Below, piece by piece: positions 8,907 to 36,572 of a stretch of DNA of 64,000 bases. A program made the position numbers and the translations under genes. Source of the stretch: Elusimicrobia bacterium HGW-Elusimicrobia-1 (lineage in GTDB: Bacteria > Elusimicrobiota > Endomicrobiia > PHAN01); assembly GCA_002841695.1 (NCBI GenBank), contig PHAN01000002.1, forward strand, positions 90,807 through 154,806, in the 5' to 3' direction. Every line of letters begins with the position of its first letter. Position 1 is the first letter of the stretch. The notes under the pieces are model-generated. The model was not told the DNA's origin, searched no databases, and saw only the letters and a list, made by a program, of their open reading frames with translations.

Positions 8907-9080
8907 CTTGTCCCCGTAGGCAAAAGGACTTGTCCCCGTAGGCAAAAGGACTTGTCTCCGTAGGCAAAAGGACTTGTCTCCGTAGGCAAAAGGGCTTGTC
9001 CCCGTAGGCAAAAGGGCTTGTCCCCGTAGGCAAAAGGACTTGTCTCCGTAGACAAAAGGGCTTGTCCCCGTAGACAAAAA
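8907..9080. repeat. Tandem repeat, 8 copies of a 22-bp unit (cttgtccccgtaggcaaaagga), ending at the RAYT start codon
   Basis: Eight head-to-tail units with few substitutions, no spacers; first unit overlaps REP-like gtagtgtaggggcttgtcccc. Confidence 0.85.
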
Positions 9081-12215: not shown

Positions 12216-12257
12216 AGTGGTCAGTGGATAGTGGTTAGTAAATAAAACGGATAATAT

Positions 12258-13250: not shown

Positions 13251-13254
13251 AAAA

Positions 13255-13425
13255 GCAGGGTTTAGAAAGACAGGGTTTAGGGCATAGGGTCTAGGGTTTA
13301 GTAAAATGAATAAAAAACAGAGTATAAAAAAGACAGGGTTTAGGGTTCAGGGTTTAGGGGTTAGGTTTTTTTTCTTTTTTCTTTTTTCTATTTTCTATCC
13401 CCTAACCCATAGACCCTATACCCTG
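13255..13425. repeat. Leader palindrome P3 built from GGGTTTAGGG-type units; contains start codon and signal-peptide coding region of 13306..15414
   Basis: cagggtttagggcatagggtctagggtttag ... cagggtttagggttcagggtttaggggttagg ... ctatcccctaacccatagaccctataccctg; near-identical copy at 22629-22772. Confidence 0.75.
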
Positions 13426-15414: not shown

Positions 15415-15437
15415 CCGTGTGTTAATCGGATAACAAA

Positions 15438-15620
15438 TTGAGTCAATTGAAAAACCCTTATCACGTCATTCCCGCGAAAGCGGGAATCCAGAGTTTCAGT
15501 CGTAGTATGGATTCGTCCCCGAATGTCTTTATCGGGGATAACAACATTCGGGAATGACCCCCGATAAAAACGTTCGAGGGCAGGCATACGGGAAAAAGGT
15601 TGGTTTTTCAATTGACTCAA
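15438..15620. mobile_element. MITE-like element with terminal inverted repeats and nested internal palindrome
   Basis: TIRs ttgagtcaattgaaaaacc / ggtttttcaattgactcaa; internal gtcattcccgcgaaagcgggaatcc ... cgggaatgac. Confidence 0.7.
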
Positions 15621-15660
15621 ATTAAAAGGTGAAAATATTTACGGTGGCTGGCTCGATAAA

Positions 15661-18014: not shown

Positions 18015-18018
18015 GGAT

Positions 18019-19325: not shown

Positions 19326-20267
19326 ATGCTGGAAAAACTCGTTTCAAGGATGACCCCGAAATGGCGCGACACGACGGTGGCTCTCGTTTTTCTTTCGCCG
19401 TTTCTGGCCGTTTACGCCGTTTTTCTCGTCTATCCGATTTTTTACTCGATGTATCTGAGTTTCAGGACGGTGAGCGTCGATACCGACATGTTCAACGTTT
19501 TTTCAGATATGAGATTTACCGGCCTGAAAAACTATATTGAACTTGCGAAAGATTATCACTTCTGGTGGTCGCTCGCCGTAACTTTTTACTACGCTATCCT
19601 CTATATACCGCTTCTGATTTTCTCCTCGCTCGTTCTGGCAGTGCTTCTTAACAATCATCTCAAAGGGCACTCGTTTTTCCGCAGCGCCTATTTCATGCCG
19701 AATGTCCTGGATATGTTTGTCGTCGGAACCATATGGATGTTCCTCTACGCCCCGCAGGGAGGCGTCATCTCGCAGATTATGAACGCTCTCGGCATAGATT
19801 TTTTTTCGCGCGAGGGAATACTCGGCAGCCCCCGCACCGCAATGCTCGGAGTCGTCGTGGCTTTGGTTCTCAAAAACACCGGTTTCGGAATGATTCTTTT
19901 TCTTGCGGCGATACAAAACATATCACGCTCGGTCTACGAAGCCGCCGACATCGACGGAGCCAGTAACTGGCAGAAGTTCACGAAAATCACGATACCTCTC
20001 GTGAGACCCATAATCCTTTTTATGGTTGTGACGGGTATGATAGGAGCGCTCAACTCCTTCACCGAAATTTACGCGATGACTTCCGGCAAGCCCAACGTCG
20101 TCGTTTTCGGTAAGACGATGGAGGCGACGCGCGTGGCGGGATATTATCTTTTCCGTCAGTGGGACAGGATGAATTACGGTTACGCCGCCGCCATGAGCTA
20201 CGCCCTTCTTTTTATTACGCTGGCGGTCTCTTACGTCAACGCGAAGATTCTTAAGTCGTCGCATTAG
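19326..20267 (+). CDS. ABC sugar transporter permease (MalF/UgpA-like)
   Basis: SD ACGGAGG; multi-TM; EAA-loop-type motif YEAADIDGASNWQKFTKITIPLVRP. Confidence 0.85.
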   Translation: MLEKLVSRMTPKWRDTTVALVFLSPFLAVYAVFLVYPIFYSMYLSFRTVSVDTDMFNVFSDMRFTGLKNYIELAKDYHFWWSLAVTFYYAILYIPLLIFSSLVLAVLLNNHLKGHSFFRSAYFMPNVLDMFVVGTIWMFLYAPQGGVISQIMNALGIDFFSREGILGSPRTAMLGVVVALVLKNTGFGMILFLAAIQNISRSVYEAADIDGASNWQKFTKITIPLVRPIILFMVVTGMIGALNSFTEIYAMTSGKPNVVVFGKTMEATRVAGYYLFRQWDRMNYGYAAAMSYALLFITLAVSYVNAKILKSSH

Positions 20268-20274
20268 AAAAAGG

Positions 20275-20332
20275 ATGTAGCGGTGGGATTGCCATCCCAC
20301 AAATTCGGCGAATAGCAATTCGCCCGCTACAT
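20275..20332. repeat. Palindromic intergenic element P6 (TGTAGCGG...CCGCTACA enclosing two hairpins)
   Basis: gatgtagcggtgggattgccatcccac...ggcgaatagcaattcgcccgctacat; related copies at 21196-21253 and 39231-39288. Confidence 0.7.
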
Positions 20333-20352
20333 TATTTCAACGGAGGAAAAAA

Positions 20353-21195
20353 ATGACATTGATAACAAAAACGCCGGAACTGGCAAAAAAAACATTTCTC
20401 TACGTCGCGCTGGCCGTAGGCGCGGTCTTCGTGCTTTTCCCGTTTTTCTGGATGATACTCGTTGCGCTGAAACCCGACGAACAGGTTTTCGCGCTGAATT
20501 TTATCCTGCAAAAACCGCTTCTTAAAAATTTCGTCGACATCTGGACGAATCCCTCGTATCCTTTCGGAAGATTCTTCGTCAACAGTTTGATAGTGGCGAC
20601 GAGCGGCGGTTTTTTCACGGCGCTGTTCTGCTCGCTGGGCGGTTACGTTTTCGCGAAGAAAGATTTTTATTTCAAAGAGCAGATATTCTGGATTCTTCTG
20701 GCTACGATGATGATACCGGGGATGATGTTTTTGGTGCCGCAGTTCGCCATCGTCACGAAACTCGGGTGGATAAACACCTACTCGGGAATGGTTGTTCCGC
20801 ATCTGGCCAATGTCTTCGGGATATTCCTGATGAGGCAGTACATGGAGACGATTCCGACGAGCATCATAGAATCCGCCAAGATAGACGGCGCGGGCGAATG
20901 GCAGATATTCTGGCGGCTGATAGTGCCGCTTTCCATGACAATAATAACGATGGTTTTTCTTTTGAGCTTTCTTTTTCACTGGTCGAACTTTCTCTGGCAT
21001 CTCGTCGTAAACACGCCCGAGTCGGACAAACTTACTCTGCCCATAGGCCTCGCGCTTTTTAAGGGGCAGTACACCTCCGACTGGGCAAAGATGATGGCGG
21101 CGTCGTGTTTCAGTATAATCCCGATAGCGTTGATATTCGTTGTCGCCCAGAAGTTTTTTATCGAGGGACTGACGTCGGGAGCCGTAAAAGAGTAA
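20353..21195 (+). CDS. ABC sugar transporter permease (MalG/UgpE-like)
   Basis: SD ACGGAGG; multi-TM; EAA motif IESAKIDGAGEWQIFWRLIVPLS. Confidence 0.85.
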   Translation: MTLITKTPELAKKTFLYVALAVGAVFVLFPFFWMILVALKPDEQVFALNFILQKPLLKNFVDIWTNPSYPFGRFFVNSLIVATSGGFFTALFCSLGGYVFAKKDFYFKEQIFWILLATMMIPGMMFLVPQFAIVTKLGWINTYSGMVVPHLANVFGIFLMRQYMETIPTSIIESAKIDGAGEWQIFWRLIVPLSMTIITMVFLLSFLFHWSNFLWHLVVNTPESDKLTLPIGLALFKGQYTSDWAKMMAASCFSIIPIALIFVVAQKFFIEGLTSGAVKE

Positions 21196-21277: not shown

Positions 21278-22627
21278 ATGAAAAAAATAAGATTAATGCG
21301 ACCGTTAGGGCGAATAGCAATCCCTCGTTTCACTCGGGACAAGTTTCGCCTGCTACTTGTTTCCTTACTTTTTGCTGTCTTTGTCGGTGGTTGCGTCCGG
21401 AAGGCAAAAGAGCCGATTGCCGATGGCGTCAAATTTCTCACCATCTGGCAGACGTACAATAACGAGGAACACGATGTGTTTCTCAAGGTCGTCTCCGAAT
21501 ACGAAAAGAATAATCAGGGCGTGAAGATAAAAGTTCAGCGCATACCGTGGGATCAGCACGTCACGAAAATAAAAGTAGCGATGATAACGCATACGGTGCC
21601 CGACATCGCGCGGGTTGACCCTGCTTTCCTGCCGCGGCTCGTGAGGTCGCGCTCGGTCATCGACTTGAGTGATTACGGCGCGGACAGAATCATCGGAGAT
21701 CTCGTACCCGCTGCGGCGCAGGCGAACGTCTTCCCCGAGTCGTTCTTCGTCCACGGCTCGACGTCGTCGCGCAAAAGGATATTCGGCCTTCCCGATCAGA
21801 CGACCGGCGTGGCGCTTTTTTATAACAAAAAACTCTTCGCCGATGCCGGGTTCGCGCGCGGGCCTGCGACGTGGGAAGAATTCGTCAAATACGCCAAAGC
21901 CCTCACGCGCGACCTCGACGGCGACGGTCGCGCCGACCAGTTCGGCTTTGCGGCGGACCTTTCGCTGTGGTTCACATTTCCGTTTTTTAACACATACGGT
22001 GTGAAATTCATCAGCGACGACGGAAAAACCTGTCTGCTGGACTCTTTGGCGGCGCGCGAGGCGCTTCAACTTAAAGTGGATCTCTACGCCAGGCACAAGG
22101 TCGAGGCGGGCGCCTGGCAGGCGGGCGCGATAAGCCCCGACACCGGATTCATTAACCGCAAATACGCGATGATATTTACCGGCCCGTGGAACCTCAAAAG
22201 ATTCAAGGACGCGGGCATTCCGTTCGGCGTTTCGCTGATACCGCGCGGACCCGCCGGTTCGTCGACAAACGTCGGCGGATCGAGTATGGTGGTATTCAGA
22301 ACATCCCGCCATCCCGACGAAGCGTATAAGTTTCTCATGTATCTTGTCTCGCCGGCGACGCAGAAAAAGTGGGCGGAGGCGCTGAGTCAGATTCCCGTCA
22401 ATATCAAGGCATATCCGATGGTGAACGTTTCCGCGCTGCCGGAACTGAAAATATTCATGGAGCAGATGAAGACGGCCGTGCCGCGCCCGAAGGTTCTCGA
22501 CTATGACGAACTCGAAAGCATAATGAATGCCGAGATGTACACCGCGCTTTCGGGACAGAAAACCGTCGAGCGGTCGCTCAAGGACGCCGTCGAGGAAATC
22601 AACAAGAGGGTGTTGAATCTGGAATAA
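21278..22627 (+). CDS. Extracellular solute-binding lipoprotein of sugar ABC transporter (family 1, MalE-like)
   Basis: SD CCGGAGGG; lipobox-like LLFAVFVGGC; 449 aa, typical size and composition of SBP_bac_1. Confidence 0.75.
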   Translation: MKKIRLMRPLGRIAIPRFTRDKFRLLLVSLLFAVFVGGCVRKAKEPIADGVKFLTIWQTYNNEEHDVFLKVVSEYEKNNQGVKIKVQRIPWDQHVTKIKVAMITHTVPDIARVDPAFLPRLVRSRSVIDLSDYGADRIIGDLVPAAAQANVFPESFFVHGSTSSRKRIFGLPDQTTGVALFYNKKLFADAGFARGPATWEEFVKYAKALTRDLDGDGRADQFGFAADLSLWFTFPFFNTYGVKFISDDGKTCLLDSLAAREALQLKVDLYARHKVEAGAWQAGAISPDTGFINRKYAMIFTGPWNLKRFKDAGIPFGVSLIPRGPAGSSTNVGGSSMVVFRTSRHPDEAYKFLMYLVSPATQKKWAEALSQIPVNIKAYPMVNVSALPELKIFMEQMKTAVPRPKVLDYDELESIMNAEMYTALSGQKTVERSLKDAVEEINKRVLNLE

Positions 22628-22628
22628 G

Positions 22629-22772
22629 TTAGGGTCTAGGGTTTAGTAAAATGAATAAAAATATAGAAAAGACAGGGTTTAGAAAGGCAGGGTTTAGGGT
22701 TCAGGGTTTAGGGGTTAGGATTTTTGTTTTAATTTTTTTCTATACCCTAACCCCTAAACCCCATGCCCTGCT
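22629..22772. repeat. Leader palindrome P3 (second copy), overlapping start of 22651..23760
   Basis: gttagggtctagggtttagtaaaATG...cagggtttagggttcagggtttaggggttagg...ctataccctaacccctaaaccccatgccctg. Confidence 0.75.
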
Positions 22773-23760
22773 TTTCTCCGCGCCGCGTCACACCATTACC
22801 GTCGACGGCGATTTATCCGAGTGGGCGTCCGACGAAACAAGAGTCGCCGATTCCGCCGACTCCGTATGGGACCCGGGCGCCGGCAAAAACGAGATAAAAA
22901 ATCTCCGCGTCACGTGGGATGCCGAGGCGCTTTACGTGGGCGTCGAGGGAATGGCGACGGACAAAGGTATCCTGTTATATCTCGACAGCGGGCGCGGAGC
23001 GGGTTATTCCGATTTGCGCGAAATAAAAACGTGGAACCGCCGCGTGAGCTTCGAAAACTTTGCGCCCGATTTCTTCTACGGCGCGTGGGACGGCTCCGAC
23101 GGCAATTTTTACAGGTTGAGTTCTTCGTGGAGCGCCGAGAACGTAAGTTCAAAGTGTTCGCTGAAAAACTCTAAAACTTCGGCCGCGGCGGGGTGGGAGA
23201 TGAAGATTCCTTTCGACCTTCTTTATTCGCGCGGGAACGCCGTCGATACCGGGGCGCGCATAAAGATATTCGCCTCCCTTGCCACCGGCGACATAGGTTC
23301 GGCCGCGTCCGGAGATTACGGCTATCTCGGCGGTGACTGCGCGCCGGACAACGAATTGACCGGACTCGGCGACGCCCTGATATCAAATTACGCGCAAGTC
23401 GTCGTCGATTCCGACGGCGACGGCCTGCCCGACGACGCTTTTGCGCGCGCTGCGCTTTCCTTCAGAGAGGTGTCTCTTTCGGAGGTTAAGTTTGCGCCCG
23501 CGCTTCACTCCTTGACGATTTTGCGCGTCGAGGTCACAAAAGAATCTTCGGTCTCGGCGGAAATCTACGGCCTCGACGGAAAAAAAATCAGGACGCTTTC
23601 GGCACAGACCTCCGCCCAAAATTTTGTCCTGAGTTTTTCGTGGGACGGCCGGGACGATTCGGGCGCCGATGTCGCCGGCGGCGTTTACATAATCAATCTG
23701 CGCGCGTCTTCGCTCGACGAAAGCGCGCGTCTTAATAAGGCCGTCGTTGTCATAAGGTGA
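22651..23760 (+). CDS. Secreted protein with CBM9/DOMON-like N-terminal domain and C-terminal FlgD-Ig/T9SS-like domain
   Basis: N-terminal HTITVDGDLSEW...LRVTWDAEALYVGVEG (homologous to 13306 and 40565 N-termini); C-terminus SAEIYGLDGKKIRTL...WDGRDDSGADVAGGVYIINL...VVVIR. Confidence 0.7.
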   Translation: MNKNIEKTGFRKAGFRVQGLGVRIFVLIFFYTLTPKPHALLFSAPRHTITVDGDLSEWASDETRVADSADSVWDPGAGKNEIKNLRVTWDAEALYVGVEGMATDKGILLYLDSGRGAGYSDLREIKTWNRRVSFENFAPDFFYGAWDGSDGNFYRLSSSWSAENVSSKCSLKNSKTSAAAGWEMKIPFDLLYSRGNAVDTGARIKIFASLATGDIGSAASGDYGYLGGDCAPDNELTGLGDALISNYAQVVVDSDGDGLPDDAFARAALSFREVSLSEVKFAPALHSLTILRVEVTKESSVSAEIYGLDGKKIRTLSAQTSAQNFVLSFSWDGRDDSGADVAGGVYIINLRASSLDESARLNKAVVVIR

Positions 23761-23876: not shown

Positions 23877-24752
23877 TTGCCGAACTGTGAACTTTTAACT
23901 ATGGACTTTTTCTCTCTTTTCTCGTCGGTGCAGAAATTCCCTGTCTTTGTCTGTGCCGCAATATTCCTCGTTTTATGCCCGACGGACGCGCTGGCCGCTT
24001 TCATCCGTTTCCCGTCCTCAGCGAGGGTGTTGTCGCTGGGCGGCGCCTCGGCGGCGCTTGCCGACGACGCATCGGCCGTGCGCTCCAATCCCGCGGGGAT
24101 GGTTCAATCGGATGGAATCGCTCTCGCCTGCGGCTACGCCGATATCTATGCCGCCGATGGATTGTACCGCGCCGAGACGGCTGCGGTTTATGCGCGCGGC
24201 GCCTCGGCGTGGGGCATCTCGTGGGAGAAACTCGGACTTCAGGGGACTTATGACGAGGACGTCGCGGCTATCGCCTTCGCAAGGCAAATCTCCGACAGTA
24301 CGAGCGTCGGGGCGGCGGTTTCTTCTTACAAAAGTGAAGTCAAGAATTTTACGACGCCGTTTTATAAAGGCCCACGCTCGGCCGCGGGCTTCGCCCTCGG
24401 CGTTTTATGGCAGATTTCCGACGACATACTTGCCGCCGCCGTCGCCGACAACATCAACGAACCGCAGCTTGCCGACGGCGAAAAACTAGCTCAATCGGCG
24501 CGGCTGGGCTTAAGATACCATCCATTTGCGAGCGGTCTTGTAACAGCGGAACACGAAACGGCCGGCAATGTTTTGCGCTGCGGATTTGAGGTCGTCATCG
24601 GCGGAATGCTGCCGGTGCGCGTCGGCGTCGAGCGTGGCCGCCCGACCTTCGGATTCGGCATAGAAACAGGTTTTATCTCGATTGATTTCGCCCTGCTTTC
24701 CGACCATAATCTGGGTCAACTCTACCAGACGGGTGTCAGGATGAAATTATGA
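23877..24752 (+). CDS. Beta-barrel outer-membrane protein, PorV/PorQ- or PorP/SprF-like (start may be ATG 23901)
   Basis: Motif SLGGASAALADDASAVRSNPAGMV near N-terminus, same family signature as 12258..13250. Confidence 0.6.
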   Translation: MPNCELLTMDFFSLFSSVQKFPVFVCAAIFLVLCPTDALAAFIRFPSSARVLSLGGASAALADDASAVRSNPAGMVQSDGIALACGYADIYAADGLYRAETAAVYARGASAWGISWEKLGLQGTYDEDVAAIAFARQISDSTSVGAAVSSYKSEVKNFTTPFYKGPRSAAGFALGVLWQISDDILAAAVADNINEPQLADGEKLAQSARLGLRYHPFASGLVTAEHETAGNVLRCGFEVVIGGMLPVRVGVERGRPTFGFGIETGFISIDFALLSDHNLGQLYQTGVRMKL

Positions 24753-26314
24753 AAAAACCGCTTGCGCGCCTCATTCTGGCGGTTATGGCGCTCGGCTTTG
24801 TCGATGCCGCGGCTTGGGCTTCGTCTGTCGGAATCGGCGGTTATTACGAAACCGAATTTTCTTGGCGTAAGGAATCGGATTTCGAATGGAATCTCGCCTC
24901 GCCAAAGCATTACCTGCAGACAAAGTTTTGGGCGAATCCGCGACAAGGTGTGGAAGTATATTCGCAGTTTTCGGCGCGCACGAACGAAAGTTGGAACGAA
25001 AAATATTTTTTCGAACTTGAGCGCGGGTGGGGAAAATGGCGGTTTGGTTCGGGCGAGACATTTTTTCTGCTTAAAGAAGAAAGACACTGGATCGACTCGC
25101 CGCTCTTACGAATATCCGAACAATCGAAGGCCTCATACTTCAACGACGGCTCCGGCGCGCGGATCAACTTTTTCGGCGCGGGGACACCCTTGAGGGCAAG
25201 CGTTGTTTTAACAAAGTCCCTGCCTAAAGCGCGGCAGGAGTGGTACGGCTCTTATTTTGACGAAAACGCGCATAATTTCGTCGCACGCCTTGGCGCGGAT
25301 TTCAGGACACCTATCGAGGCGCTCGACAGAATATCCGTCGGAGGATCTTATCTGAATTCGGCGCTGATACAGCAAAAGTACGATTCCGCCGGCAATTTTC
25401 TCAATGAGCACGCGATGATAAACGACGTCATTTCGCTCGACGCCAAACTTTCGGTTTTCGACGCGACATTGACGGGCGAATGGTCGGGTTCCCAAAAAAA
25501 AGGATCGGCGAACGACCCGCTTCCGTCGGAAAATCAGACGGCGTTCGCCGCCGAGTTGCGCGACTTAAACTTAAGGCCGCTGCGCCTGCAAACGCGTTTC
25601 TACGACTATGGGCCGGGCTATCGTTCGGAGCTGTCGCGCGCCTTCGGGCGGCTCTCCCGCGACGGAAACGACGCCGACAAAGAGTTCGGCCGCCGGGGAT
25701 ATTACTTTGAAACCGGCTATCTGTGGCCGAAAAAAATGATAACCTTCACGTACAAACGAAAATATAGAATGTCTGACTTCGATTACCTGACCAACAATCA
25801 GAATATCCGCGAGGATTATATTATTTACCGGGCCACAGAGACGTATACCGGTTCCTACGACGCTATCGAATCGCGGATAGATTTCGCCAACGGCATAAAA
25901 AACATCTCCGCCGTCGAGCTTTCCGGCGATAGACAAGGATCGTGGCCGGGGTTTCTCTTTGAAATTTCGGGCGATACGCGCGATGTTTATTCGCGCGTCC
26001 AGTTCAGGGTAAAGGACGCCGGCTCCGAAACGGGTCTTGGCGAAAGACACATCATCGGCGCCGAAGTCAGATACAACCTTTCCGATCATCTGCAGCTTTA
26101 TGCGCGCACGGTCTCGGTGAACGCGGCTAAACGCGGCAGAAACTGGTCGAGCGCTTTCTATCAACTTAGATATTTTATGGGATGGGACATCGAGGGTTAT
26201 GTTGAATACGGCGACGGCTGGCACACCGATTCGCTGTCGCACGACTCCGACATAACCGATTACGATCGCTCGCTCGTCGACGTGGTCAGGATACTTTTCA
26301 AGATTAACTTTTGA
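24749..26314 (+). CDS. Outer-membrane beta-barrel protein (unknown family; candidate glycan channel)
   Basis: ATGA start/stop overlap with upstream gene; signal peptide MKKPLARLILAVMALGFVDAAAWA; C-terminal ...RILFKINF. Confidence 0.55.
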   Translation: MKKPLARLILAVMALGFVDAAAWASSVGIGGYYETEFSWRKESDFEWNLASPKHYLQTKFWANPRQGVEVYSQFSARTNESWNEKYFFELERGWGKWRFGSGETFFLLKEERHWIDSPLLRISEQSKASYFNDGSGARINFFGAGTPLRASVVLTKSLPKARQEWYGSYFDENAHNFVARLGADFRTPIEALDRISVGGSYLNSALIQQKYDSAGNFLNEHAMINDVISLDAKLSVFDATLTGEWSGSQKKGSANDPLPSENQTAFAAELRDLNLRPLRLQTRFYDYGPGYRSELSRAFGRLSRDGNDADKEFGRRGYYFETGYLWPKKMITFTYKRKYRMSDFDYLTNNQNIREDYIIYRATETYTGSYDAIESRIDFANGIKNISAVELSGDRQGSWPGFLFEISGDTRDVYSRVQFRVKDAGSETGLGERHIIGAEVRYNLSDHLQLYARTVSVNAAKRGRNWSSAFYQLRYFMGWDIEGYVEYGDGWHTDSLSHDSDITDYDRSLVDVVRILFKINF

Positions 26315-26338: not shown

Positions 26339-28363
26339 ATGAAAAAGAAAAAAAATATCGCGTTCGCGAACAAGAATCATATGATCATCGCCTCGGCGGT
26401 TTTTGTAGCGCTTCTTGCGGTTTCTTCCGCCGCCGGTCCTTTGGCGCCGAAAGCCGTTCAGGGCGGCGTGGAATTCGCTTACGAAGCCGCCCGCGACGCC
26501 AAAAAGATTGCCGTGGCCGGTGAGTTTAATTCATGGAACCATGAAAAAAAATTTCTAAAGTACGACCCCGTCCGCGGACTCTGGACGACGGTTGTTGAGC
26601 TTGGCGAGGGAAGACACGAATATAAATTTGTCGTCGACGGAACGTGGCAGGAGGGCGCCAATCTCGTCGCCGAAGTGAAAAAGAAAGACGGACGGCTTGT
26701 TGTTGAGGAGCCCGCCTCCGCGCCCAATACGCCCTACTCGGCAAAGATAAATTTCTCGGGCAAGTTCGTCGCCGAACTCGGAGCGCAGTCCCGCCAACAG
26801 CGGGACGACTTCTCTTCCATGCCGCCCGTCAATCACGCGGACTTCGACTGGAATATAACCGCCTCGAAAGACGCCTCGGGCTTCGCGCGGCTTGAATATG
26901 ACGGCGACAAAACCTCGGGCAAACTCCTATTTAAACAGGGCCGGATAAGTTTCGCGCCGACGGGTTTCGAGACGTCGATGTATTACAAGCAGAAAGCGAT
27001 TCAGTTCGACGACCCTCTGCGCGCGACAGACAGGGCCGTGACGCTGAAATACGACGCCGTCGAGTTCTTCGATGAAACCAATCCGCATAAGGCGTTCGGT
27101 CTCTGGGAGCAGGCCGTCGCCGTAAAAACGGATTTTCTCGGCGGGGCCTTTTCCGCGTTTTATTCGGACATGCTCCGTCCGGCGACGTACTTTCACACTC
27201 TTGAAGACAACAGCGGACTTCGTTATGCGCGGAGTTTCAAATCCATCCCGTTGAAAATCGCTTTTACGACGAGGCGCACTCGCGGCGGATGGTGGCCGTG
27301 GGCGAACAGCGACAACAACTGGTTTCCCGATCCCGAAAAGCCGAACGGCTACTCATGGGACGCCGCGGCCAGAGGAAGCGTTGCGACCTGGTATAACGGA
27401 TATCTCAACGAAGATTTCATAGGCGTTGACGGAAAATTCGACTTTCTGCCCGGTGTCGCCCTGTTCGGTGAAACGGCGTCGGTAAAGAAAGAATTGAAAT
27501 CGCAAAAGATATCGGGGGGCAGCGCGCACGAAAAGACGTGGACCATCGAAAACGGCGCCGAGAGTATTTACGGCGTAAAATACTCGCGCGGAAAGATACT
27601 CTCGCTTCAGGCCTCGGCGTCAAGCCGGAACACAACTTTCACCCCGCCGCTTTATGCGGGCGAAACCTTCGCCGCCACCGGCTCCGGTTTTTCTTTGGCC
27701 GCGCGTCTGCGCGCCGGATCTTTCACTTTAGCGGCGGCGGGCTCGTCGCGAAAAAACTCGCGGATAGAAAAAATACTCCCGCTCGACATACATCCCTACG
27801 CGCGGCCTCTCGTCTATCAAGGTCTATTTCCGATGGAAGCCGCGTCCGTCGGATTTCTCGTCCATGCCGTCGAAGAGGAAAATGCCGTTATAAGCGCCGC
27901 GGAATATTCCGCTCCCGCGTTTTCCGTCGGAGCGAAAAGCAGAATATCTTCGCTTAAACTCTTGCCGCGATCCTACGCCGGCGGAATCTGGAATGTCAAT
28001 CCGTTCATCGCCGCGCCCGACGAAATCACGCTTTCCGAGTCGGCGCTCGATGCCGCCGTCAAAATTTGGCCGGATATTACGGTCGAGTCCGCGCTCAGAT
28101 TGTTCGCGTGGGACGATAAAAACGAAGGCGGCTTGAAAGCATACTCGGCGCTTTTTCTGGCGCTCAAATACGACTTCTCGAAAAATTCATACGTGCGGCT
28201 CGGTTGGGGGCTCGACCCCGAGGACACCGACGACGATATTCTCGCGGGATTTGACGCGCGGGAAAGCTTTTTATATAATCTGCGCGAAGCGTCGATTCTT
28301 GAAGCCGCGCGGACGCTTGAGTCGCTTCGGAGAATTTCCGTGCGTATGTTCGTGAGATTTTAA
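26339..28363 (+). CDS. Fusion of N-terminal CBM48 (AMPK-beta glycogen-binding type) domain to a predicted outer-membrane beta-barrel
   Basis: SD ACGGAG; signal peptide; CBM48 motif KKIAVAGEFNSWNHE...GRHEYKFVVDGTWQEGANLVA; 500-aa C-terminal region ending ...RMFVRF. Confidence 0.6.
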   Translation: MKKKKNIAFANKNHMIIASAVFVALLAVSSAAGPLAPKAVQGGVEFAYEAARDAKKIAVAGEFNSWNHEKKFLKYDPVRGLWTTVVELGEGRHEYKFVVDGTWQEGANLVAEVKKKDGRLVVEEPASAPNTPYSAKINFSGKFVAELGAQSRQQRDDFSSMPPVNHADFDWNITASKDASGFARLEYDGDKTSGKLLFKQGRISFAPTGFETSMYYKQKAIQFDDPLRATDRAVTLKYDAVEFFDETNPHKAFGLWEQAVAVKTDFLGGAFSAFYSDMLRPATYFHTLEDNSGLRYARSFKSIPLKIAFTTRRTRGGWWPWANSDNNWFPDPEKPNGYSWDAAARGSVATWYNGYLNEDFIGVDGKFDFLPGVALFGETASVKKELKSQKISGGSAHEKTWTIENGAESIYGVKYSRGKILSLQASASSRNTTFTPPLYAGETFAATGSGFSLAARLRAGSFTLAAAGSSRKNSRIEKILPLDIHPYARPLVYQGLFPMEAASVGFLVHAVEEENAVISAAEYSAPAFSVGAKSRISSLKLLPRSYAGGIWNVNPFIAAPDEITLSESALDAAVKIWPDITVESALRLFAWDDKNEGGLKAYSALFLALKYDFSKNSYVRLGWGLDPEDTDDDILAGFDARESFLYNLREASILEAARTLESLRRISVRMFVRF

Positions 28364-28367
28364 CGAT

Positions 28368-28796
28368 ATGGAAAAATATTCTGCGACAGACCGGATACAA
28401 TCGCGTCGGGCCGGCATAATTCCGGTCGCGGCGACGTTCTTCCTTGCACTCGCCGTATTTTCCGGCTGCGCCACGTTCAACATTATCCGCGACCGTATAG
28501 AGTCGCCCGTAATTGACGGCGCTAAGGTTGTTTTTTATTACGACTCCGATTCCGCTAAGAGCGTCTCGGTGGCCGGTGAGTTCAATGGATGGGAATATCG
28601 TCCCGAACAGCCGCGCGCGATAGTGATGAAAAGAAACGAAAAGGGGGGCGTCTGGCAGGCGTCGTCCGAGATATCTCCGGGCCGATATCAATATAAAATA
28701 GTGATAGATTATCAAACGTGGATTACCGATCCATATAACACCAACACAGTCGATGACGGAACCGGCAATCTCAACTCGCTTCTCGTCGTAAAATAG
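28368..28796 (+). CDS. Small lipoprotein with single CBM48-like domain
   Basis: Lipobox-like LALAVFSGC; SVSVAGEFNGWEY...GRYQYKIVIDYQTWITDPYNTNTVDDGTGNLNS. Confidence 0.65.
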   Translation: MEKYSATDRIQSRRAGIIPVAATFFLALAVFSGCATFNIIRDRIESPVIDGAKVVFYYDSDSAKSVSVAGEFNGWEYRPEQPRAIVMKRNEKGGVWQASSEISPGRYQYKIVIDYQTWITDPYNTNTVDDGTGNLNSLLVVK

Positions 28797-28842: not shown

Positions 28843-29859
28843 ATGAAACGCAGATTTGTGGTTGCGCTGGTTTGCGCTCTGACGGCGGCATTCGCCGTTT
28901 CTTCAGCCGGAGCGAAACTGAGGAAAGTCGGTTCGGCCGAGAGCGGCAAATCCGTCGAATGCGCTACGCGCGTTACCGGCGCGGGCGTCGAGTTCGTTTA
29001 CGAAAACCCCTCGGCGAAAAACGTCTTCGTGGCCGGTTCTTTCAACGACTGGAACTCTTCGCGCGACGCTCTTTCGAAAGATAAAAAGGGTGTTTGGCGC
29101 GCGACGCTGCCGTTGAAAACGGGAACGCATCAGTACAAGTTCGTCGTCGACGGCAACTGGATGGCAGATCCTTCCAATCCTCAAACCTCCGACGACGGCT
29201 TAGGCGGGAAAAACTCGGCTGTGGAAATAAAATCTGCGGCAGATGGAAAACCCGCCCCCGCAACCGCGGCGCCCGGCGCAGGCGGGCCGAAAGTTACGGG
29301 CGAGGGCGTTAGATTTGTCTATAAAAACCCCGCGGCGAAAAACGTCTTCGCGGCGGGCGAGTTCAACGCATGGAACGCGCAGGCCGATCCGCTCATAAGG
29401 CAGAAAGACGGAACGTGGCTGCTCGTCAAGAAAATCCCCCCCGGAAGATACAATTATAAGTTCATCGTCGACGGACAGTGGCTCAATGATCCCGTCAATA
29501 CCGCAACCTCCGACGACGGTTACGGCGGAAAGAACTCGGTTCTGGAAGTAGTCGCAGCCGCCGCGCCGTCGCACAAACTGTCGGCCGCGACGAGACAGAC
29601 CAAGACGGGGATAGAGTTCGTTTACGAAAATGCATCCGCCAAAAGCGTCGCAGTTGCGGGCAGTTTCAATAACTGGAGCGCCTCGTCGCACCGTCTCGAA
29701 AAGGATAAGTCGGGCATCTGGAAGACATCGGTTCCTCTGGGTAAAGGCAAATATCAGTATAAGTTTGTCGTCGACGGCGAATGGAAAGAGGATCCGTCGA
29801 ACTCCCAAAACTCCGAAGACGGCCTCGGCGGGAAAAACTCAGTCATCGAGGTTCGCTGA
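28843..29859 (+). CDS. Secreted protein consisting of three tandem CBM48-like glycogen/starch-binding domains
   Basis: Three internal repeats of VEFVYENPSAKNVFVAGSFNDWN...HQYKFVVDGNWMADPSNPQTSDDGLGGKNSAVEI (second and third copies at ~aa 150 and ~aa 250). Confidence 0.75.
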   Translation: MKRRFVVALVCALTAAFAVSSAGAKLRKVGSAESGKSVECATRVTGAGVEFVYENPSAKNVFVAGSFNDWNSSRDALSKDKKGVWRATLPLKTGTHQYKFVVDGNWMADPSNPQTSDDGLGGKNSAVEIKSAADGKPAPATAAPGAGGPKVTGEGVRFVYKNPAAKNVFAAGEFNAWNAQADPLIRQKDGTWLLVKKIPPGRYNYKFIVDGQWLNDPVNTATSDDGYGGKNSVLEVVAAAAPSHKLSAATRQTKTGIEFVYENASAKSVAVAGSFNNWSASSHRLEKDKSGIWKTSVPLGKGKYQYKFVVDGEWKEDPSNSQNSEDGLGGKNSVIEVR

Positions 29860-30301: not shown

Positions 30302-32470
30302 TCAGAAAATGACTTCGACGGAAATTTCGTCGCCGGGCGCGACACGCTCGGCGTTTACCCGCGCGAAGTTAAAGCGGCTTTCAAGCGTTTCGCCGAATAT
30401 CTTGTTTGTCGTCGAGAACTCGGTTTTCTTCCCTTCGACGAGAACTTTCCTGGCTTTGCGCTTCCCTCCAAAAACCAGAAAACTGATTTCCTGCGTTTCA
30501 GGCGCCCCGTCATAAGAGCCGCCCTCCGCCGCCGATAACTTTATCAAGACCCTGCCGCCGCGCGAGCGCGCAATAACGCGTCTTTTAAGATACGCGCCGT
30601 TGTCGCAGGCGTTTGTGACGCCGTCGTCTTCGTAGTAGTCAAAAAACGTTTCGCCGCGCGACGGAAAAACGAGAAATTCAATATTTTTCGGCACGCCGAG
30701 CCGCCCGGCCGGCGCGGTCGACGGAATTATCGAGCCCTCCCGGGCGAAGAGCGCGATTTTGTCGATGGCGACGTCGATATGGCGCGAGCGTTTTCCTTTT
30801 ATTATCTCGCCGTCCTCAAGTGGTATCCACGTGCCTTCGGGGAAATATGTCATTCTCGTGGAAACCCTGCCCGGCGAGTAAGCGGGCGCGGCCATAAGCG
30901 AAGCGCCGATGAGGTACTGCTCCCTGTAATCGTAGCAGTTTGCGTCCCGCGGATACTCGACGTAAAGCCCGCGGAAAGGCGGCACTCCCGTTTCGTGGCA
31001 TTCGCGCGCCAAAGAGTAAAGATAAGGATTCAGCGCGTATCTCGCGCGGACGTATTTTTTGAAGATAGAAACCGCCTCTTCGGAATAATTCCAGGCGTCG
31101 CGGGACGCGCCCGACGAATGTGTGCGCAAAACAGGAGAAAAACATCCGAACTCTACCCATCTGATAAAAAGTTCCTCGTCTATATTTTTTCCCAGAAACC
31201 CGCCGATATCGTGCGACCAGTAAGCCGCGCCTATGTTCCCGCCCTGATGCGTGAATGCAATCTGGCGCTTTATCGTCTCAAAAGTCGAATATGTATCGCC
31301 GGAGAATTGTACCGGATATTTGTGGGAGCCGATACCGCCCCATCGTGAAAGTATCATCGCTCTGCGGCCGTCGCGGGCATTGGCGGCGGCTTCGTAGTAA
31401 AACCTGTTGAGCCACATCTGAGAGTGCAAGTCCATTATCCCGCCTGAAGCGCCCCAGCCGTCCACCCACCAGAAGTCGATTCCTTCGTCGAGAATTTTCG
31501 TGAATATCTTTTCCGACCACGCGCGCACATAGCGGTCGTCGTTCCACTGAACGCGGAAATCGCTTATATCGGGCAGGACTTTTTTTATTTGGGCGCGGCA
31601 GGGGTCGTCAGGGGGAAGCTCGTCCGAAACGCCGTAGCCGGGGTGGTCGTTGAGGCAGCATTTCACTCCGAGTTTTTTTAGATCCGAGATGAACCGCGCG
31701 GGATCGGGAAAGAACTCGGAGTTCCACTCGTAGCCGTTCCATCCGCATTTTCGCCAGTCGGTGTCTATGACGAAGACGTCCAGAGGTATGCCGAGTTCGC
31801 GGAATTTGTCGACGACGCCGAGGATATCATCGTGGCGGAACTTGTGCCAGCGCGAGTACCAGTAGCCGAGCGCCCATCGGGGTATCATCGGGATTTTCCC
31901 GAATAGTCCGATAAAATCGGCGAAGGCCTTTTTGTAGTCGGTTCCGCAGGCGAAGAAATACCAATCCTGAAAGTCGCTCGACGAGCGCTTTTTTATCCAT
32001 CCGGTTTTTTCGTCGCGCAGAAAATCGCAGTGGTTGCGGTAGACGAAGTAGCCGTTTTTCGAGACGAGGCCCGGCGTGAAGCTCTCGTAAATCTTGCCCG
32101 ACGGATATTTGTAAAGGTCGATGTGCGCGCCGCCGAGGTTTTCGGTGTCTTCGCCCCCCGGTTCGAATACACTCTCGCCCGAGAGCGCGCCGAAGACGCG
32201 GATTTTGAGGTTGCCTATGTCGAAGCATTTTCCGTCGGGAAGGAGTTCCAGCGCGAAGCGGCGGGTTTTGAGGGCGAACAGGCCGTTGGTTACAACCGAG
32301 TGGGGGACTTCCCCGCTGAAATTCGGTTCGAGTATCAGCGGATTTTCGTCGTCGAAAACTCCCTCCGCGGTGTATTCAAGCCGCAGCAGCGAGTCGGAGT
32401 AAACTGTGACGCGGTAGTTTTTGTCGACGAGATAAACCACCGGCGCCGAAGATATTTTGTGTATTTTCAT
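30302..32470 (-). CDS. GH31-family alpha-glucosidase-like enzyme, cytoplasmic (no signal peptide)
   Basis: 722 aa; motifs PRWALGYWYSRW, FWWVDGWG, SHDIGGF resembling GH31 signatures. Confidence 0.7.
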   Translation of the reverse strand: MKIHKISSAPVVYLVDKNYRVTVYSDSLLRLEYTAEGVFDDENPLILEPNFSGEVPHSVVTNGLFALKTRRFALELLPDGKCFDIGNLKIRVFGALSGESVFEPGGEDTENLGGAHIDLYKYPSGKIYESFTPGLVSKNGYFVYRNHCDFLRDEKTGWIKKRSSSDFQDWYFFACGTDYKKAFADFIGLFGKIPMIPRWALGYWYSRWHKFRHDDILGVVDKFRELGIPLDVFVIDTDWRKCGWNGYEWNSEFFPDPARFISDLKKLGVKCCLNDHPGYGVSDELPPDDPCRAQIKKVLPDISDFRVQWNDDRYVRAWSEKIFTKILDEGIDFWWVDGWGASGGIMDLHSQMWLNRFYYEAAANARDGRRAMILSRWGGIGSHKYPVQFSGDTYSTFETIKRQIAFTHQGGNIGAAYWSHDIGGFLGKNIDEELFIRWVEFGCFSPVLRTHSSGASRDAWNYSEEAVSIFKKYVRARYALNPYLYSLARECHETGVPPFRGLYVEYPRDANCYDYREQYLIGASLMAAPAYSPGRVSTRMTYFPEGTWIPLEDGEIIKGKRSRHIDVAIDKIALFAREGSIIPSTAPAGRLGVPKNIEFLVFPSRGETFFDYYEDDGVTNACDNGAYLKRRVIARSRGGRVLIKLSAAEGGSYDGAPETQEISFLVFGGKRKARKVLVEGKKTEFSTTNKIFGETLESRFNFARVNAERVAPGDEISVEVIF

Positions 32471-32644: not shown

Positions 32645-35083
32645 TCAGCGCGCAACGAGTATCATCGCCGATCCTGCCGGGATGTCCACGGACAACTTCG
32701 ATTTTTTTACTTTCATTAAGCGTGAGGGCTTTGCGACCCTGATTTTTTTTACGACGCGTCCGCCGTCGGCGCCGGGGGCGTCGAAGAGTTCGTAGCGCTT
32801 CTCGCCGAGGATGTCGAAGTACTCCGTTCCGTCGGGCGCGCCCGCGTCGAACGTGACGGCGCGGGAGGCGGCGGAATTGTTGACCGCGACAAAAATCCTG
32901 TCCGCGCCTCTTCTCCTGGCAAAGACGATAATTTCATTTTCGTCGTCGGCGAGCACACTCTCGTAAACGCCGGTATGGAGTTCCTCGCGCGTGTTATGTA
33001 TCGCGGAGAGTTTCCTGTAGTGCTCGTAAATATCGCGCATAAATATTTTATCTTTATCGTCGAACGCAAGGTCTTTCCATACCATAGGCTCGCGGCAGAA
33101 CGGGTCGTCCGAACTCCACATCCCGGCTTCGGAGCCGTACCATATCATCGGCGCACCGGGCAGCGCAAACTGCACAGCCGTCACTTTTTTGAGTTTTTCG
33201 TAGACGTCTTTCGACGGCCGCCCCTGCTTGTACGACGGGTTATAGTCGCCGGTGTCCGACGGATTGAGGCGGTTACCCTTGTCGTAGTGGCGCCCCGGAT
33301 TAGAAAGCATCGAGACGGCGCGGTCGGTGTCGTGGCTGTCGAAGAGATTCTGCTGGACGAAGTTGACCTGATAAGGATAAAGCGCCAAAAGCCGTTTTAT
33401 CTCCGAATCAAACTTCGAGGGCTTTATCCAGCCGTTGGAGAGCCAGTTGAGCGTCGTCTTGATAAAAGGATAGTTCATCTGCGCGTGAAAAAGTTCGGGT
33501 TTCAGCCATTCGGGGGATTCGTCCCATAATTCGCCCGAGATATAGGCGTCGGGGTTGATGGACTTGACAAGCCGCGACCACTCGACCCAGAAAGGCATCT
33601 TGACATTCTCGGGAACGTCTAATCGCCAGCCGTCTATACCGTCGGAAGGATCGCCGTCGCCGTTGGGATCCATCCAGCGGCGGGTGATGTCGAAGATGTG
33701 TTTTTTTGGGCCGGCGACGAGACCGTTTTCGTCTTCCCTGAATTCCGGCAGCCCGCCGAATCCCGCCCAACCCTCGTAGCCGCGGCCAGTGTGCGCTTCG
33801 CGCATGAATAATTCCCAGTCGGTGACACTGAACCAGTCGGCGTATTTCGATTTCCTGCCTTTTTTCTTGACGTCGTTAAATGCCCAGAAGTTATCGCCCG
33901 AGTGATTGAATACTCCGTCGATGATGACGCGAAAGCCCATCGCCTTGGCTTTTTTAAGAAAATCCAGAAAGAGCATGTCGGTCTTTGTCCATTTCCACGT
34001 GGCGGGATCATCCGTCTCGCCCCTGAGTTCGGCGATGTCGCCCTTGAATCCGAGATTGTCGTCTATGTGGCGATAATCCGAGGTGTTGTATTTGTGGTGC
34101 GATTCGGCTTTGAATACCGGCGTAAGATACAGCGCGGTCACGCCCATTTCTTTGAGATAATCAAGTTTTTCGACGAGTCCCTGAATGTCTCCGCCGAAGC
34201 GCCGTCCCCAGACGAAATCGTAGAAGCCGCCCTGCTCCGAGGGATGTTTCCTGGAAAAATCCCATGTCCACGGAAGCGAGCCGTCGGGATTGTTCGCGGG
34301 GTCGCCATCGCGGAAGCGCTCGGGCATTACCTGATACCAGACCGCGCCTTTCGCCCAATCGGGCGTCGCGAACTTTATTTTTGTCGAGGCAGTGAAAACC
34401 GTCCCGGCGGAGGGGTAAATTATCTTGGTGTTTCCGTCGGCCAGGGCAAACGAATATTTGAGATTTTGCGCGTCGCGGGGAATCTCGGCGAAAGCGCTCC
34501 AGTAGTCGAAGCCGAGATAGGTCTTTGTTTTTTCCATCGCAAAACGTTTGCCGCCGCCCGAGACGACTTCGGCGTTTTCGACGTCTCCGGCGAGCGCGCG
34601 AAGTTTTATCTCGGCAAGACCCTTCGTTATTACGTTAAAATATTCTATCTTGCGAGGATCGTGGCGCAGCGCCGCCACCGCGATGTTGTTGAGAATAGGC
34701 GCCCCGTATGACGTTCCCGTCTCACCGACGGCAATGCCCGAATTGAAACCTCCGAAGCCGTCTTCCTTTTTTAGGGCCGCGTCGGCCTTGGGGTCCTCCA
34801 TCCAGCGGTCGCCGTTGACGACGAGTTTGTATAAGTGGAGGCCTTCTTTGAGTTCGAGCTTCGCCTCGAATTTCCCGTCGGGCCGCCGGCGCATCAGGTC
34901 TTTTGAGGAATTCCATTGGTTAAACGATCCGACTACCGCCACGGAATTTACCGCCTCTCCGGGCCGGGGTTCATATAGAAAAGAGATTTTCTGCGTCGGC
35001 GCAATCACCGCCGACAGAGCCGTCGTCATCAACAGCGCGACGGAGAAAACCGCCGCGAAGAAACATTTTTTCGATGAAAACAT
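32645..35083 (-). CDS. Secreted GH13 alpha-amylase/neopullulanase-like enzyme with N-terminal CBM48-like domain
   Basis: Signal peptide MFSSKKCFFAAVFSVALLMTTALSA; CBM48 VAVVGSFNQWNSS...LHLYKLVVNGDRW; GH13 regions VIIDGVFNHSGD, GWRLDVPENV, YISGELWD, FDSHDTDR. Confidence 0.85.
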   Translation of the reverse strand: MFSSKKCFFAAVFSVALLMTTALSAVIAPTQKISFLYEPRPGEAVNSVAVVGSFNQWNSSKDLMRRRPDGKFEAKLELKEGLHLYKLVVNGDRWMEDPKADAALKKEDGFGGFNSGIAVGETGTSYGAPILNNIAVAALRHDPRKIEYFNVITKGLAEIKLRALAGDVENAEVVSGGGKRFAMEKTKTYLGFDYWSAFAEIPRDAQNLKYSFALADGNTKIIYPSAGTVFTASTKIKFATPDWAKGAVWYQVMPERFRDGDPANNPDGSLPWTWDFSRKHPSEQGGFYDFVWGRRFGGDIQGLVEKLDYLKEMGVTALYLTPVFKAESHHKYNTSDYRHIDDNLGFKGDIAELRGETDDPATWKWTKTDMLFLDFLKKAKAMGFRVIIDGVFNHSGDNFWAFNDVKKKGRKSKYADWFSVTDWELFMREAHTGRGYEGWAGFGGLPEFREDENGLVAGPKKHIFDITRRWMDPNGDGDPSDGIDGWRLDVPENVKMPFWVEWSRLVKSINPDAYISGELWDESPEWLKPELFHAQMNYPFIKTTLNWLSNGWIKPSKFDSEIKRLLALYPYQVNFVQQNLFDSHDTDRAVSMLSNPGRHYDKGNRLNPSDTGDYNPSYKQGRPSKDVYEKLKKVTAVQFALPGAPMIWYGSEAGMWSSDDPFCREPMVWKDLAFDDKDKIFMRDIYEHYRKLSAIHNTREELHTGVYESVLADDENEIIVFARRRGADRIFVAVNNSAASRAVTFDAGAPDGTEYFDILGEKRYELFDAPGADGGRVVKKIRVAKPSRLMKVKKSKLSVDIPAGSAMILVAR

Positions 35084-35288: not shown

Positions 35289-36392
35289 ATGGCTCAAGTC
35301 ATCATCAAAAATGTCTGGAAAAAATACGGGGACGCCGAAATCGTAAAAAATTTCAATCTTACGATAGCGGACAAGGAATTCTGCATTCTCGTGGGCCCGT
35401 CGGGCTGCGGCAAAACGACCACGCTTCGCATGATAGCCGGACTCGAAGATATTTCATCCGGAGAGATCCTCATCGGGGACGTTGTCGTCAACGGTGTGCC
35501 TCCGAAGGACAGAGACATCGCCATGGTCTTCCAGAACTACGCGCTCTATCCGCATATGAATGTGCGCGACAACATGGCCTTCGGACTGAAGCTGCGGGGT
35601 TATTCAAAAAAACTCATCGACGAGCGTGTCAACGAAGCCGCCGACATTCTCAACATAAAACATCTCCTGGCCAGAAAACCCAAGGATCTCTCGGGCGGTC
35701 AGCGTCAGCGCGTTGCAGTGGGACGGGCCATCGTCAGAAAACCTAAGGTCTTTCTTTTCGACGAACCGCTCTCCAACCTTGACGCCAAACTCCGCGCCCA
35801 GATGCGCGCGGAACTCAAAAAACTCCACCAGCGACTTCAGGCGACGATGATATACGTCACGCACGACCAGATCGAGGCCATGACGATGGGCGATAAAATC
35901 TGCGTGATGAAAGACGGCGTGATACTGCAGGTCGACGAGCCGATTAAACTTTATTCGGATCCGGTCGACAAGTTCGTGGCCGGCTTTATCGGCTCCCCGC
36001 CGATGAACTTTTTCGATTGCAAGGTGGCCGCGAAGGATGACGCGGTGTGGATATCCGAGGGTAGTTTCGATATTAAACTCTCCGCTAAATTCACCGCCGC
36101 GCTTAAAAATCTCGACGGTAAAATGGTTACGGCCGGCATCCGCCCCGAAGATATTCACGACAAACTCTTCTATCGCATAGGCCCCATGGACGGCAATATC
36201 TTCACCGCTACGGTGGACGTCATAGAGCCGCTCGGCGCCGAGATTTATCTGCATATGAACACCGGGAAAAACTCTTTCGTCGCAAAGGTTGATTCGCACA
36301 ACACCGCTAAGCCCAACCAGATTCTCGAACTCGTCGTCAATGTCGATAAAATAAAGATTTTCGACAAGGAAACCGAAACGGCGCTGGCTTGA
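35289..36392 (+). CDS. Sugar ABC transporter ATP-binding protein (MalK/MsmX/UgpC type with C-terminal regulatory domain)
   Basis: Walker A GPSGCGKTT, ABC signature LSGGQRQRVAVGRA, Walker B VFLFDEPLSNLD, H-loop YVTHDQ. Confidence 0.9.
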   Translation: MAQVIIKNVWKKYGDAEIVKNFNLTIADKEFCILVGPSGCGKTTTLRMIAGLEDISSGEILIGDVVVNGVPPKDRDIAMVFQNYALYPHMNVRDNMAFGLKLRGYSKKLIDERVNEAADILNIKHLLARKPKDLSGGQRQRVAVGRAIVRKPKVFLFDEPLSNLDAKLRAQMRAELKKLHQRLQATMIYVTHDQIEAMTMGDKICVMKDGVILQVDEPIKLYSDPVDKFVAGFIGSPPMNFFDCKVAAKDDAVWISEGSFDIKLSAKFTAALKNLDGKMVTAGIRPEDIHDKLFYRIGPMDGNIFTATVDVIEPLGAEIYLHMNTGKNSFVAKVDSHNTAKPNQILELVVNVDKIKIFDKETETALA

Positions 36393-36465: not shown

Positions 36466-36545
36466 GTAGTGTAGCCCTTTATGGGCGTTTCTTTATGGGC
36501 GTTTCTTTATGGGCGTTTATTGACGGGGACAAGCCCCTACACTAC
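36466..36545. repeat. REP-family palindrome plus 3 tandem copies of ctttatgggcgttt
   Basis: gtagtgtagccctttatgggcgtttctttatgggcgtttctttatgggcgtttattgacggggacaagcccctacactac. Confidence 0.7.
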
Positions 36546-36572
36546 ACCAAAATAGGAAGTAAGAGGCAAAAT

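Follow-up and report, generated by a model that had tools for sequence, protein, structure and literature searches.

A CBM48 domain fused to a predicted 22-stranded outer-membrane barrel in a conserved alpha-glucan cassette of Elusimicrobia

Introduction

Sugar-specific channels such as LamB, ScrY and CymA are barrels of 18 or 14 strands, TonB-dependent transporters such as SusC and Caulobacter MalA have 22, and OmpM/SlpA (the SLH-porins), LptD with LptE, PgaA and BcsC place a periplasmic N-terminal module ahead of a large C-terminal barrel. Carbohydrate-binding modules (CBMs) of the CBM48 family are known from AMPK-beta, GlgB, GlgX, pullulanases and SEX4, and in these proteins they are fused to enzymes or kinase scaffolds. 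Here I describe a gene in which a CBM48 domain is instead fused to a membrane barrel. It lies at positions 26339-28363 (+ strand) of a 64,000-nucleotide stretch of contig PHAN01000002.1 (hereafter the window) from the groundwater metagenome-assembled genome (MAG) Elusimicrobia bacterium HGW-Elusimicrobia-1.

By inference from these comparisons, the protein would work most like a maltoporin-type specific channel within a Sus-like multi-protein locus. Unlike LamB, ScrY and CymA, it has 22 predicted strands, an N-terminal folded CBM, and constant neighbouring genes for a second large outer-membrane protein (OMP) and a CBM48 lipoprotein; neither the LamB profile (PF02264) nor any other porin profile of Pfam matched it. 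The 22-stranded barrel is shared with the TonB-dependent transporters, although sequence identity to these and SusC barrels is 10% or less, and a TonB-dependent reading was rated low because the protein lacks a plug and a TonB box and the window lacks TonB/ExbBD genes. Its domain order matches that of OmpM/SlpA, LptD-LptE, PgaA and BcsC, and the small lipoprotein gene beside the barrel recalls LptE or BtuG-type partners, but the N-terminal module is a CBM48 and not an SLH, TPR or beta-jellyroll domain, and the context is one of catabolic uptake, not of tethering or export. A type Va autotransporter was ruled out by the 22 instead of 12 strands, the non-helical linker and the lack of an autotransporter match in Pfam.

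The original prediction, made from the DNA letters alone, proposed a glycogen-binding domain tethered to a channel as a capture-and-import device and supposed that this architecture had not been described. Within the searchable literature no paper on a CBM-outer-membrane barrel fusion or on its cassette was found, and the annotation names are uninformative. I propose that the protein serves a conserved alpha-glucan cassette as its conduit through the outer membrane and that a periplasmic CBM48 binds the incoming chains, a reading to which, taken as a whole, I assign a probability of about one half.

The gene and its CBM48 domain

The open reading frame (ORF) is real, and the sequence strings quoted in the original prediction are all present in the window. 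The ORF starts with ATG, preceded 8 nt upstream by GGAG, and encodes 674 amino acids (aa) before a stop codon at 28361-28363. Its product is identical to the "hypothetical protein" CVU77_01415 and has eight other full-length homologues with 41-87% identity. Residues 1-32 (26339-26434, + strand; MKKKK...LLAVSSAA) read as a signal peptide of the signal peptidase I type, with a Lys-rich start, a hydrophobic core and a ...VSSAA end; inspection of these residues revealed no lipobox Cys, and AlphaFold2 modelled them as a helix with a low predicted local distance difference test score (pLDDT).

The CBM48 or AMPK-beta-type glycogen-binding domain spans aa 33-123 (26435-26707, + strand), as delimited by Pfam, alignment and structural model. 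The Pfam profile AMPK1_CBM (PF16561) matched aa 52-109 with an E-value of 1.1e-10 (42 bits, cut-off 26.8), and CBM_48 (PF02922) also passed its cut-off (23.1 versus 22.4 bits), which upholds the predicted CBM48/AMPK-beta likeness of the N-terminal ~100 aa. In a PDB sequence search, GEFNSWN and EGRHEYKFVVDGTW of the protein aligned with GSFNNWS and EGEHQYKFFVDGQW of AMPK-beta CBMs, and W66, K96 and W103 aligned with AMPK-beta W100, K126 and W133, which I take to be the sugar-contacting residues of the AMPK-beta1 CBM in the structure work with cyclodextrin. The likeness to the CBM48s of AMPK-beta, GlgB, GlgX, pullulanases and SEX4 thus comprises an above-cut-off profile match and the retained Trp/Lys/Trp set, while the last sugar-binding loop is shorter than in known CBM48s (EVKKKDGRL versus TSDDGLGGKNS).

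An alignment of 30 family members, which share only ~20-47% identity, showed 93-97% retention of W66, K96, W103 and N108, and no region of the protein is more conserved than the CBM48 (mean column conservation of 0.47 versus 0.35 for the barrel strands). Since both the domain and its contact residues are so conserved, the alignment argues for a working alpha-glucan-binding site and against a decayed structural module. A match of the NCBIfam "T9SS plug" profile to the same domain (E 0.02, 13.9 bits versus a cut-off of 100) was set aside as a generic Ig-like resemblance.

The outer-membrane barrel

Residues ~126-674 had no match in Pfam or NCBIfam, and a search of PDB sequences with a profile of the barrel part stayed empty up to E = 10, which leaves the barrel without assignment to a known family; at the reach of these profile searches, the barrel family is one without detectable relatives. 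AlphaFold2 was run with an alignment of 9 sequences (pLDDT 62.7) and, in a superseding run, with 30 sequences (pLDDT 85.6, predicted template modelling score 0.74), and both models showed 22 long antiparallel strands. The resulting outer-membrane beta-barrel covers aa 137-674 (26747-28360, + strand), a placement that also draws on fold matches and conservation. Strands 1-8 lie at aa 137-151, 164-174, 179-188, 196-205, 210-216, 257-266, 269-278 and 290-300, strands 9-16 at aa 305-317, 351-370, 373-391, 400-417, 421-434, 444-459, 462-473 and 508-524, and strands 17-22 at aa 528-541, 561-577, 580-593, 598-614, 617-624 and 664-673.

The connections between these strands are as is typical of OMPs, with long loops outside and tight turns on the periplasmic side: those from odd to even strands (1-2 to 21-22) measure 12, 7, 40, 11, 33, 8, 9, 34, 19, 4 and 39 aa, and those from even to odd strands (2-3 to 20-21) only 4, 4, 2, 4, 2, 3, 2, 3, 2 and 2 aa. 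Four of the long loops stood out in conservation and model, namely aa 217-256 with AFGLWEQ, aa 318-350 with WWPWAN..NWFPDP, aa 474-507 with HPY, and aa 625-663 with DPEDTDDDIL. Four charged residues on the barrel strands (R295, D364, E378 and R587) are invariant among the 30 members, as is the C-terminal Phe, which ends the pattern R-I-x-[LV]-R-x-x-[VI]-[RK]-F. Strand amphipathicity, assayed as alternating hydrophobicity, was z = 3.2 above shuffled sequences, and there is no Cys in the mature protein. All features of an OMP that is a substrate of the BAM machinery were therefore found: signal peptide, even strand number, amphipathicity, short turns with long loops, and a C-terminal aromatic residue.

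Structural searches with the barrel returned outer-membrane barrels only. The best matches by size were the 22-stranded barrels of TonB-dependent transporters, and AlgE, PgaA, BcsC, PelB and Wzi were also among the matches, with similarity to these exporters no better than that to porins. The modelled fold is that of a generic large outer-membrane barrel, not of a specific solved family. Model, fold matches and amphipathicity together bear out the earlier suggestion that the C-terminal part is a beta-barrel with a C-terminal Phe, and not a soluble domain.

Distribution of the fusion

A profile built from the barrel part only was scanned against 1.84 billion representative proteins and matched 36 proteins at E <= 1e-3, nine of them at E <= 1e-30. 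AMPK1_CBM was present in 28 of the 30 near-full-length barrel family members, so the fusion is the normal and, judged by this count, the ancestral state of the family and recurs in other genomes. One CBM48-less exception among the 30 looks N-terminally truncated. A genuine CBM-less barrel is P0015 (1012-2664 of locus L009), in which the protein's own signal peptide leads straight into strand 1; its gene is preceded by a GGAGG ribosome-binding site, the upstream gene ends 16 bp earlier, and a small CBM48 lipoprotein gene still follows directly 3' of it. Named members belong to Endomicrobiia/Elusimicrobia, Ca. Eisenbacteria and an Ignavibacteria-labelled MAG, a spread drawn chiefly from the names of clusters and from contig look-ups, while a contig scan with one peptide pattern gave three loci.

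The Ignavibacteria-labelled contig (JBGFRZ010000077.1, loci L001 and L005) shares the gene order of the Elusimicrobia window down to a pair of GGDEF genes. The locus may thus have been transferred horizontally as a whole, or the contig may have been misbinned or mislabelled.

Position of the CBM48 domain

In the AlphaFold2 model, the C-terminus of the barrel lies on the short-turn side. With an even number of strands and alternating long and short connections, the N-terminus of strand 1 must then sit beside it at the periplasmic rim. The CBM48 ends at aa 123 and strand 1 begins at aa 137, and the intervening linker (aa 124-136; 26708-26746, + strand; delimited by homologue alignment and model) is 13-16 aa long in all close homologues, with an invariant PNTPYS. 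A linker this short, starting from the periplasmic rim, places the CBM48 either just under the barrel or inside it, and the outside could be reached only by a linker stretched to its full length across the lumen. From the modelled topology, the CBM48 is thus most likely periplasmic, or in the lumen, rather than surface-exposed.

Evidence from other proteins bears on whether ligands of a CBM48 reach the periplasm. A sensor histidine kinase with HAMP-PAS-HisKA-HATPase architecture, encoded at 12563-15175 of locus L010, carries two CBM48 domains between its first and second transmembrane segments. Because the sensor region of this kinase consists of two CBM48 domains, ligands of a size that suits CBM48 would reach the periplasm in these organisms; both CBM48-GH13 (glycoside hydrolase family 13) enzymes of the window carry signal peptides and were counted towards the same point. 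Judged by its domains, the kinase would be an alpha-glucan-sensing two-component kinase encoded within a CBM48-barrel cassette.

The opposite topology, in which the CBM48 is threaded through the lumen and displayed outside as a catcher or as a barrel-anchored, autotransporter-like starch adhesin, appears rather unlikely. It would account for the retained binding residues, the lumen of a 22-stranded barrel is wide enough for a linker whose 13-16 aa could just span it when fully extended, and this linker was modelled with low pLDDT; moreover, type Va autotransporters export N-terminal passengers through a C-terminal barrel. Here, however, there are 22 strands and not 12, the linker is modelled without a helix, and its length is at the very limit of what would be needed. 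N-terminal domains on large barrels (the plug of TonB-dependent transporters, LptD, BamA, PgaA and OmpM) are mostly periplasmic or lumenal, and a likely surface protein, which has a type IX secretion system (T9SS)-type C-terminal domain and lies beside a PorV-like OMP, is already provided by the cassette. The proposed capture-and-import device therefore stands in one part and not in the other: the context strongly favours alpha-glucan uptake, whereas strand parity and the short linker speak against capture at the surface above the channel.

A lumenal CBM48 could also act as a glycan-binding plug or gate that closes the pore and moves on substrate binding, with or without TonB. The layout of an N-terminal ~100-aa domain, a short linker and strand 1 is that of plug and barrel, the best size matches are the 22-stranded barrels of TonB-dependent transporters, and a 22-stranded barrel that lacks a plug needs closure. 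Plug (PF07715) and TonB_dep_Rec (PF00593), however, gave no match to the protein at E up to 0.1, and no TonB box was seen on inspection: the first CBM48 hairpin (strands at aa 33-40 and 43-49 in the model) begins right at the mature N-terminus (AGPLAPKAVQGGVEF), and distant members are alike in this. No TonB, ExbB or ExbD gene was found in the window, and no SusD/RagB-family neighbour was found by Pfam in the window or in loci L001, L006, L007, L008 and L010. The natural CBM-less barrel P0015 implies that the CBM48 is not needed as an obligatory plug, the low-confidence linker is unlike a tightly packed plug, and closure of the pore could come instead from the conserved long loops, which total ~165 aa. 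I consider a gating role of this kind quite unlikely.

The alpha-glucan cassette

The gene is part of a co-directional run in the window. Upstream on the + strand are genes for MalF-like and MalG-like ABC permeases (19326-21195, Pfam) and a lipoprotein sugar-binding protein (SBP_bac_1, 21278-22627, Pfam), followed by a 369-aa exported protein with profile matches to FlgD_ig and a PorU-type C-terminal domain (22651-23760), and a 291-aa PorV/PorQ/FadL-like small OMP (23877-24752) that matched weakly, at 38.8 bits, under the cut-off of 90. Judging by its domains, the 369-aa protein is likely located at the surface and kept there by the PorV-like OMP. Directly 5' of the barrel gene lies the gene for a 521-aa partner (24749-26314, + strand) with a signal peptide, a C-terminal ...KINF and no Pfam match, which is likely an OMP, and a partner gene of this type always occupies this position. 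BLASTP found nothing between the barrel and this protein, and hhalign gave only a weak alignment (17.7% probability at E 0.0014).

Four nt after the barrel gene begins a gene for a 142-aa CBM48 lipoprotein (28368-28796, + strand; lipobox VFSGC). A counterpart was found directly 3' of the barrel gene in 7/7 related loci examined, and all seven small CBM48 proteins carry the lipobox Cys and a conserved FIKDRIxSP-like tether. Next come a 338-aa secreted protein with three CBM48 repeats and a signal peptidase I signal peptide (28843-29859, +), a GH31 alpha-glucosidase with no signal peptide and hence cytoplasmic (30302-32470, -), an exported CBM48-GH13 alpha-amylase-family enzyme (32645-35083, -), a MalK-type ABC ATPase (35289-36392, +) and an exported CBM48-GH13 enzyme with a cyclomaltodextrinase-like C-terminus (36495-38960, +).

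The core order of an OMP of ~505-590 aa, the CBM48-barrel, the small CBM48 lipoprotein and, mostly, a multi-CBM48 protein is kept in L001, L002, L006 (Ca. Eisenbacteria), L007, L008, L009 and L010, whose barrels are 20-42% identical to that of the window. It is usually accompanied by the protein with the C-terminal domain, the PorV-like OMP, GH13 or GH57 enzymes, MalEFG(K) and LacI, and genes for GH13/GH57/GH31 enzymes, a MalEFGK-type transporter and LacI adjoin the cassette in the window, L001, L006, L007, L008 and L010. None of the loci examined contains a glycosyltransferase, a SusD-like gene or TonB/ExbBD. These recurring hydrolases, importers and CBM48 proteins constitute strong guilt-by-association evidence for alpha-glucan acquisition, and gene content thus points strongly to a cassette that serves alpha-glucan uptake.

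Two tandem GGDEF diguanylate cyclase genes occupy 16623-19296 of the window, directly 5' of the malFG-like permeases. The arrangement is common to the 42%-identical locus L001 (1-2167) and does not occur in the more distant loci.

This context also bears on the idea that the barrel does not import at all, and instead exports or anchors a self-made alpha-glucan or serves as a scaffold for an amylase complex. AlgE, PgaA, BcsC and Wzi serve exopolysaccharides, and the periplasmic N-terminal domains of such exporters handle polymer; these proteins and PelB are among the structural matches, and c-di-GMP, the product suggested by the GGDEF genes just upstream in the window and L001, often controls exopolysaccharide export. 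In contrast, no locus contains a glycosyltransferase or synthase, glycoside hydrolases and a MalEFGK-type importer accompany the cassette in every locus, frequently together with LacI, the GGDEF pair is missing from the more distant loci, and the structural likeness to exporters does not exceed that to porins. A role other than import is therefore improbable.

Other features of the window

A second, paralogous outer-membrane cassette was found at 9528-16623. One of its products, of 895 aa, ends in a PorZ/PorU-like domain (E 1.3e-14), and another is a genuine PorV/PorQ-family OMP (149.5 bits versus a cut-off of 90). A TraF_2-like OMP is also encoded there, as is a 702-aa protein with fn3 and a T9SS type-A tail that is 36% identical to the 369-aa protein and paralogous to it. 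T9SS-style pairs of cargo and PorV are noteworthy in an Elusimicrobia MAG. A 2412-aa and a 1013-aa protein with fn3/Ig-like repeats are encoded at 40565-47803 and 53078-56119; the latter has a CHU_C or T9SS-type C-terminal domain, and in the former the signal peptide is followed by a 'ITIDAALADWQSNE' motif with a likeness to the N-terminal domain found in the 369-aa and 702-aa proteins.

The start of the window cuts into a gene (5-6298) for a GH13 protein that exceeds 2097 aa and carries fn3 and CarboxypepD_reg domains. Its C-terminal repeats are paralogous to the ORFs at 6448-7584 and 7752-8849 (29-37% identity), which themselves lack a Pfam match, and an ORF for an IS200-like Y1 transposase (9080-9538) separates the GH13 region from the second OMP cassette. 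Just downstream of the alpha-glucan locus, 39322-39924 encodes a 200-aa fusion of a MerR-type helix-turn-helix and a response-regulator receiver domain.

Discussion

The proposed conduit would act on starch, glycogen and maltodextrin in Elusimicrobia and some candidate phyla of the FCB group. The signal peptide would export the protein, and the C-terminal 540 aa would insert as a plug-less barrel by means of the C-terminal Phe beta-signal. Starch or glycogen may first be engaged by surface enzymes and binding proteins, for which the GH13 protein at the window start and the C-terminal-domain protein with its PorV-like OMP are candidates, and chains or large dextrins would then enter the 22-stranded barrel. 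Its water-filled sugar channel is probably narrowed by the four long aromatic- and acid-rich loops rather than by a plug, and R295, D364, E378 and R587 on the strands probably also line the pore. At the inner mouth, the CBM48 on its ~13-residue linker would grip the emerging chain and block back-diffusion, acting as a ratchet or in hand-off without TonB energy. The chain could then pass to the CBM48 lipoprotein, the triple-CBM48 protein and the periplasmic CBM48-GH13 enzymes, and the products to the MalE-like binding protein, MalFGK and finally the cytoplasmic GH31 enzyme.

Of this picture, the analysis shows the identity of the two domains, the barrel fold with its strand number and alternating topology, and the conservation of the fusion, the binding residues and the cassette, whereas the channel function, the periplasmic site of the CBM48 and its part as ratchet or in hand-off are deductions. 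Several points weigh against this proposal. The family is tiny, so that AlphaFold2 had no more than 30 aligned sequences to build on. Strand parity and linker length are the grounds on which the CBM48 was placed relative to the barrel, and the 13-residue linker, if fully extended (~45 Å), could just span the lumen. The triple-CBM48 protein and the CBM48 lipoprotein could be located at the surface rather than in the periplasm, and a plug-less 22-stranded barrel requires some form of closure.

A bolder extension, which I regard as doubtful at present, is that the cassette encodes a so far unrecognised, TonB-independent polysaccharide import machine, which Elusimicrobia, Ca. Eisenbacteria and their relatives would have as an alternative to SusCD. 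In it, the periplasmic CBM48 modules (one at the pore mouth, one on the lipoprotein and three on the soluble protein) would form a Brownian ratchet that draws long alpha-glucan chains through the plug-less pore. The functional analogy is the ComEA-type ratchet of DNA uptake: a domain that binds the polymer on the periplasmic side, once it has passed the outer-membrane pore, could favour inward movement of a long chain with no energy supplied at the outer membrane. There is no sequence or structural relationship to ComEA, and the polymer here would be a glucan and not DNA.

How polysaccharides pass the outer membrane of diderms outside Bacteroidota and Proteobacteria is little understood, and the CBM48-barrel is a concrete and compact candidate: a barrel permanently fused to a glycan-binding module, in a cassette that recurs in three or more candidate or little-studied lineages, invariably beside amylases and a maltodextrin ABC importer. 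It seems to represent a hitherto undescribed route of bacterial uptake for starch-like chains, and if the CBM48 does work on the periplasmic side, it may permit energy-free directional uptake of long chains. The family, whose genes now appear as "hypothetical" or "glycogen-binding domain-containing protein", would also serve as a marker for starch or glycogen scavenging in metagenomes.

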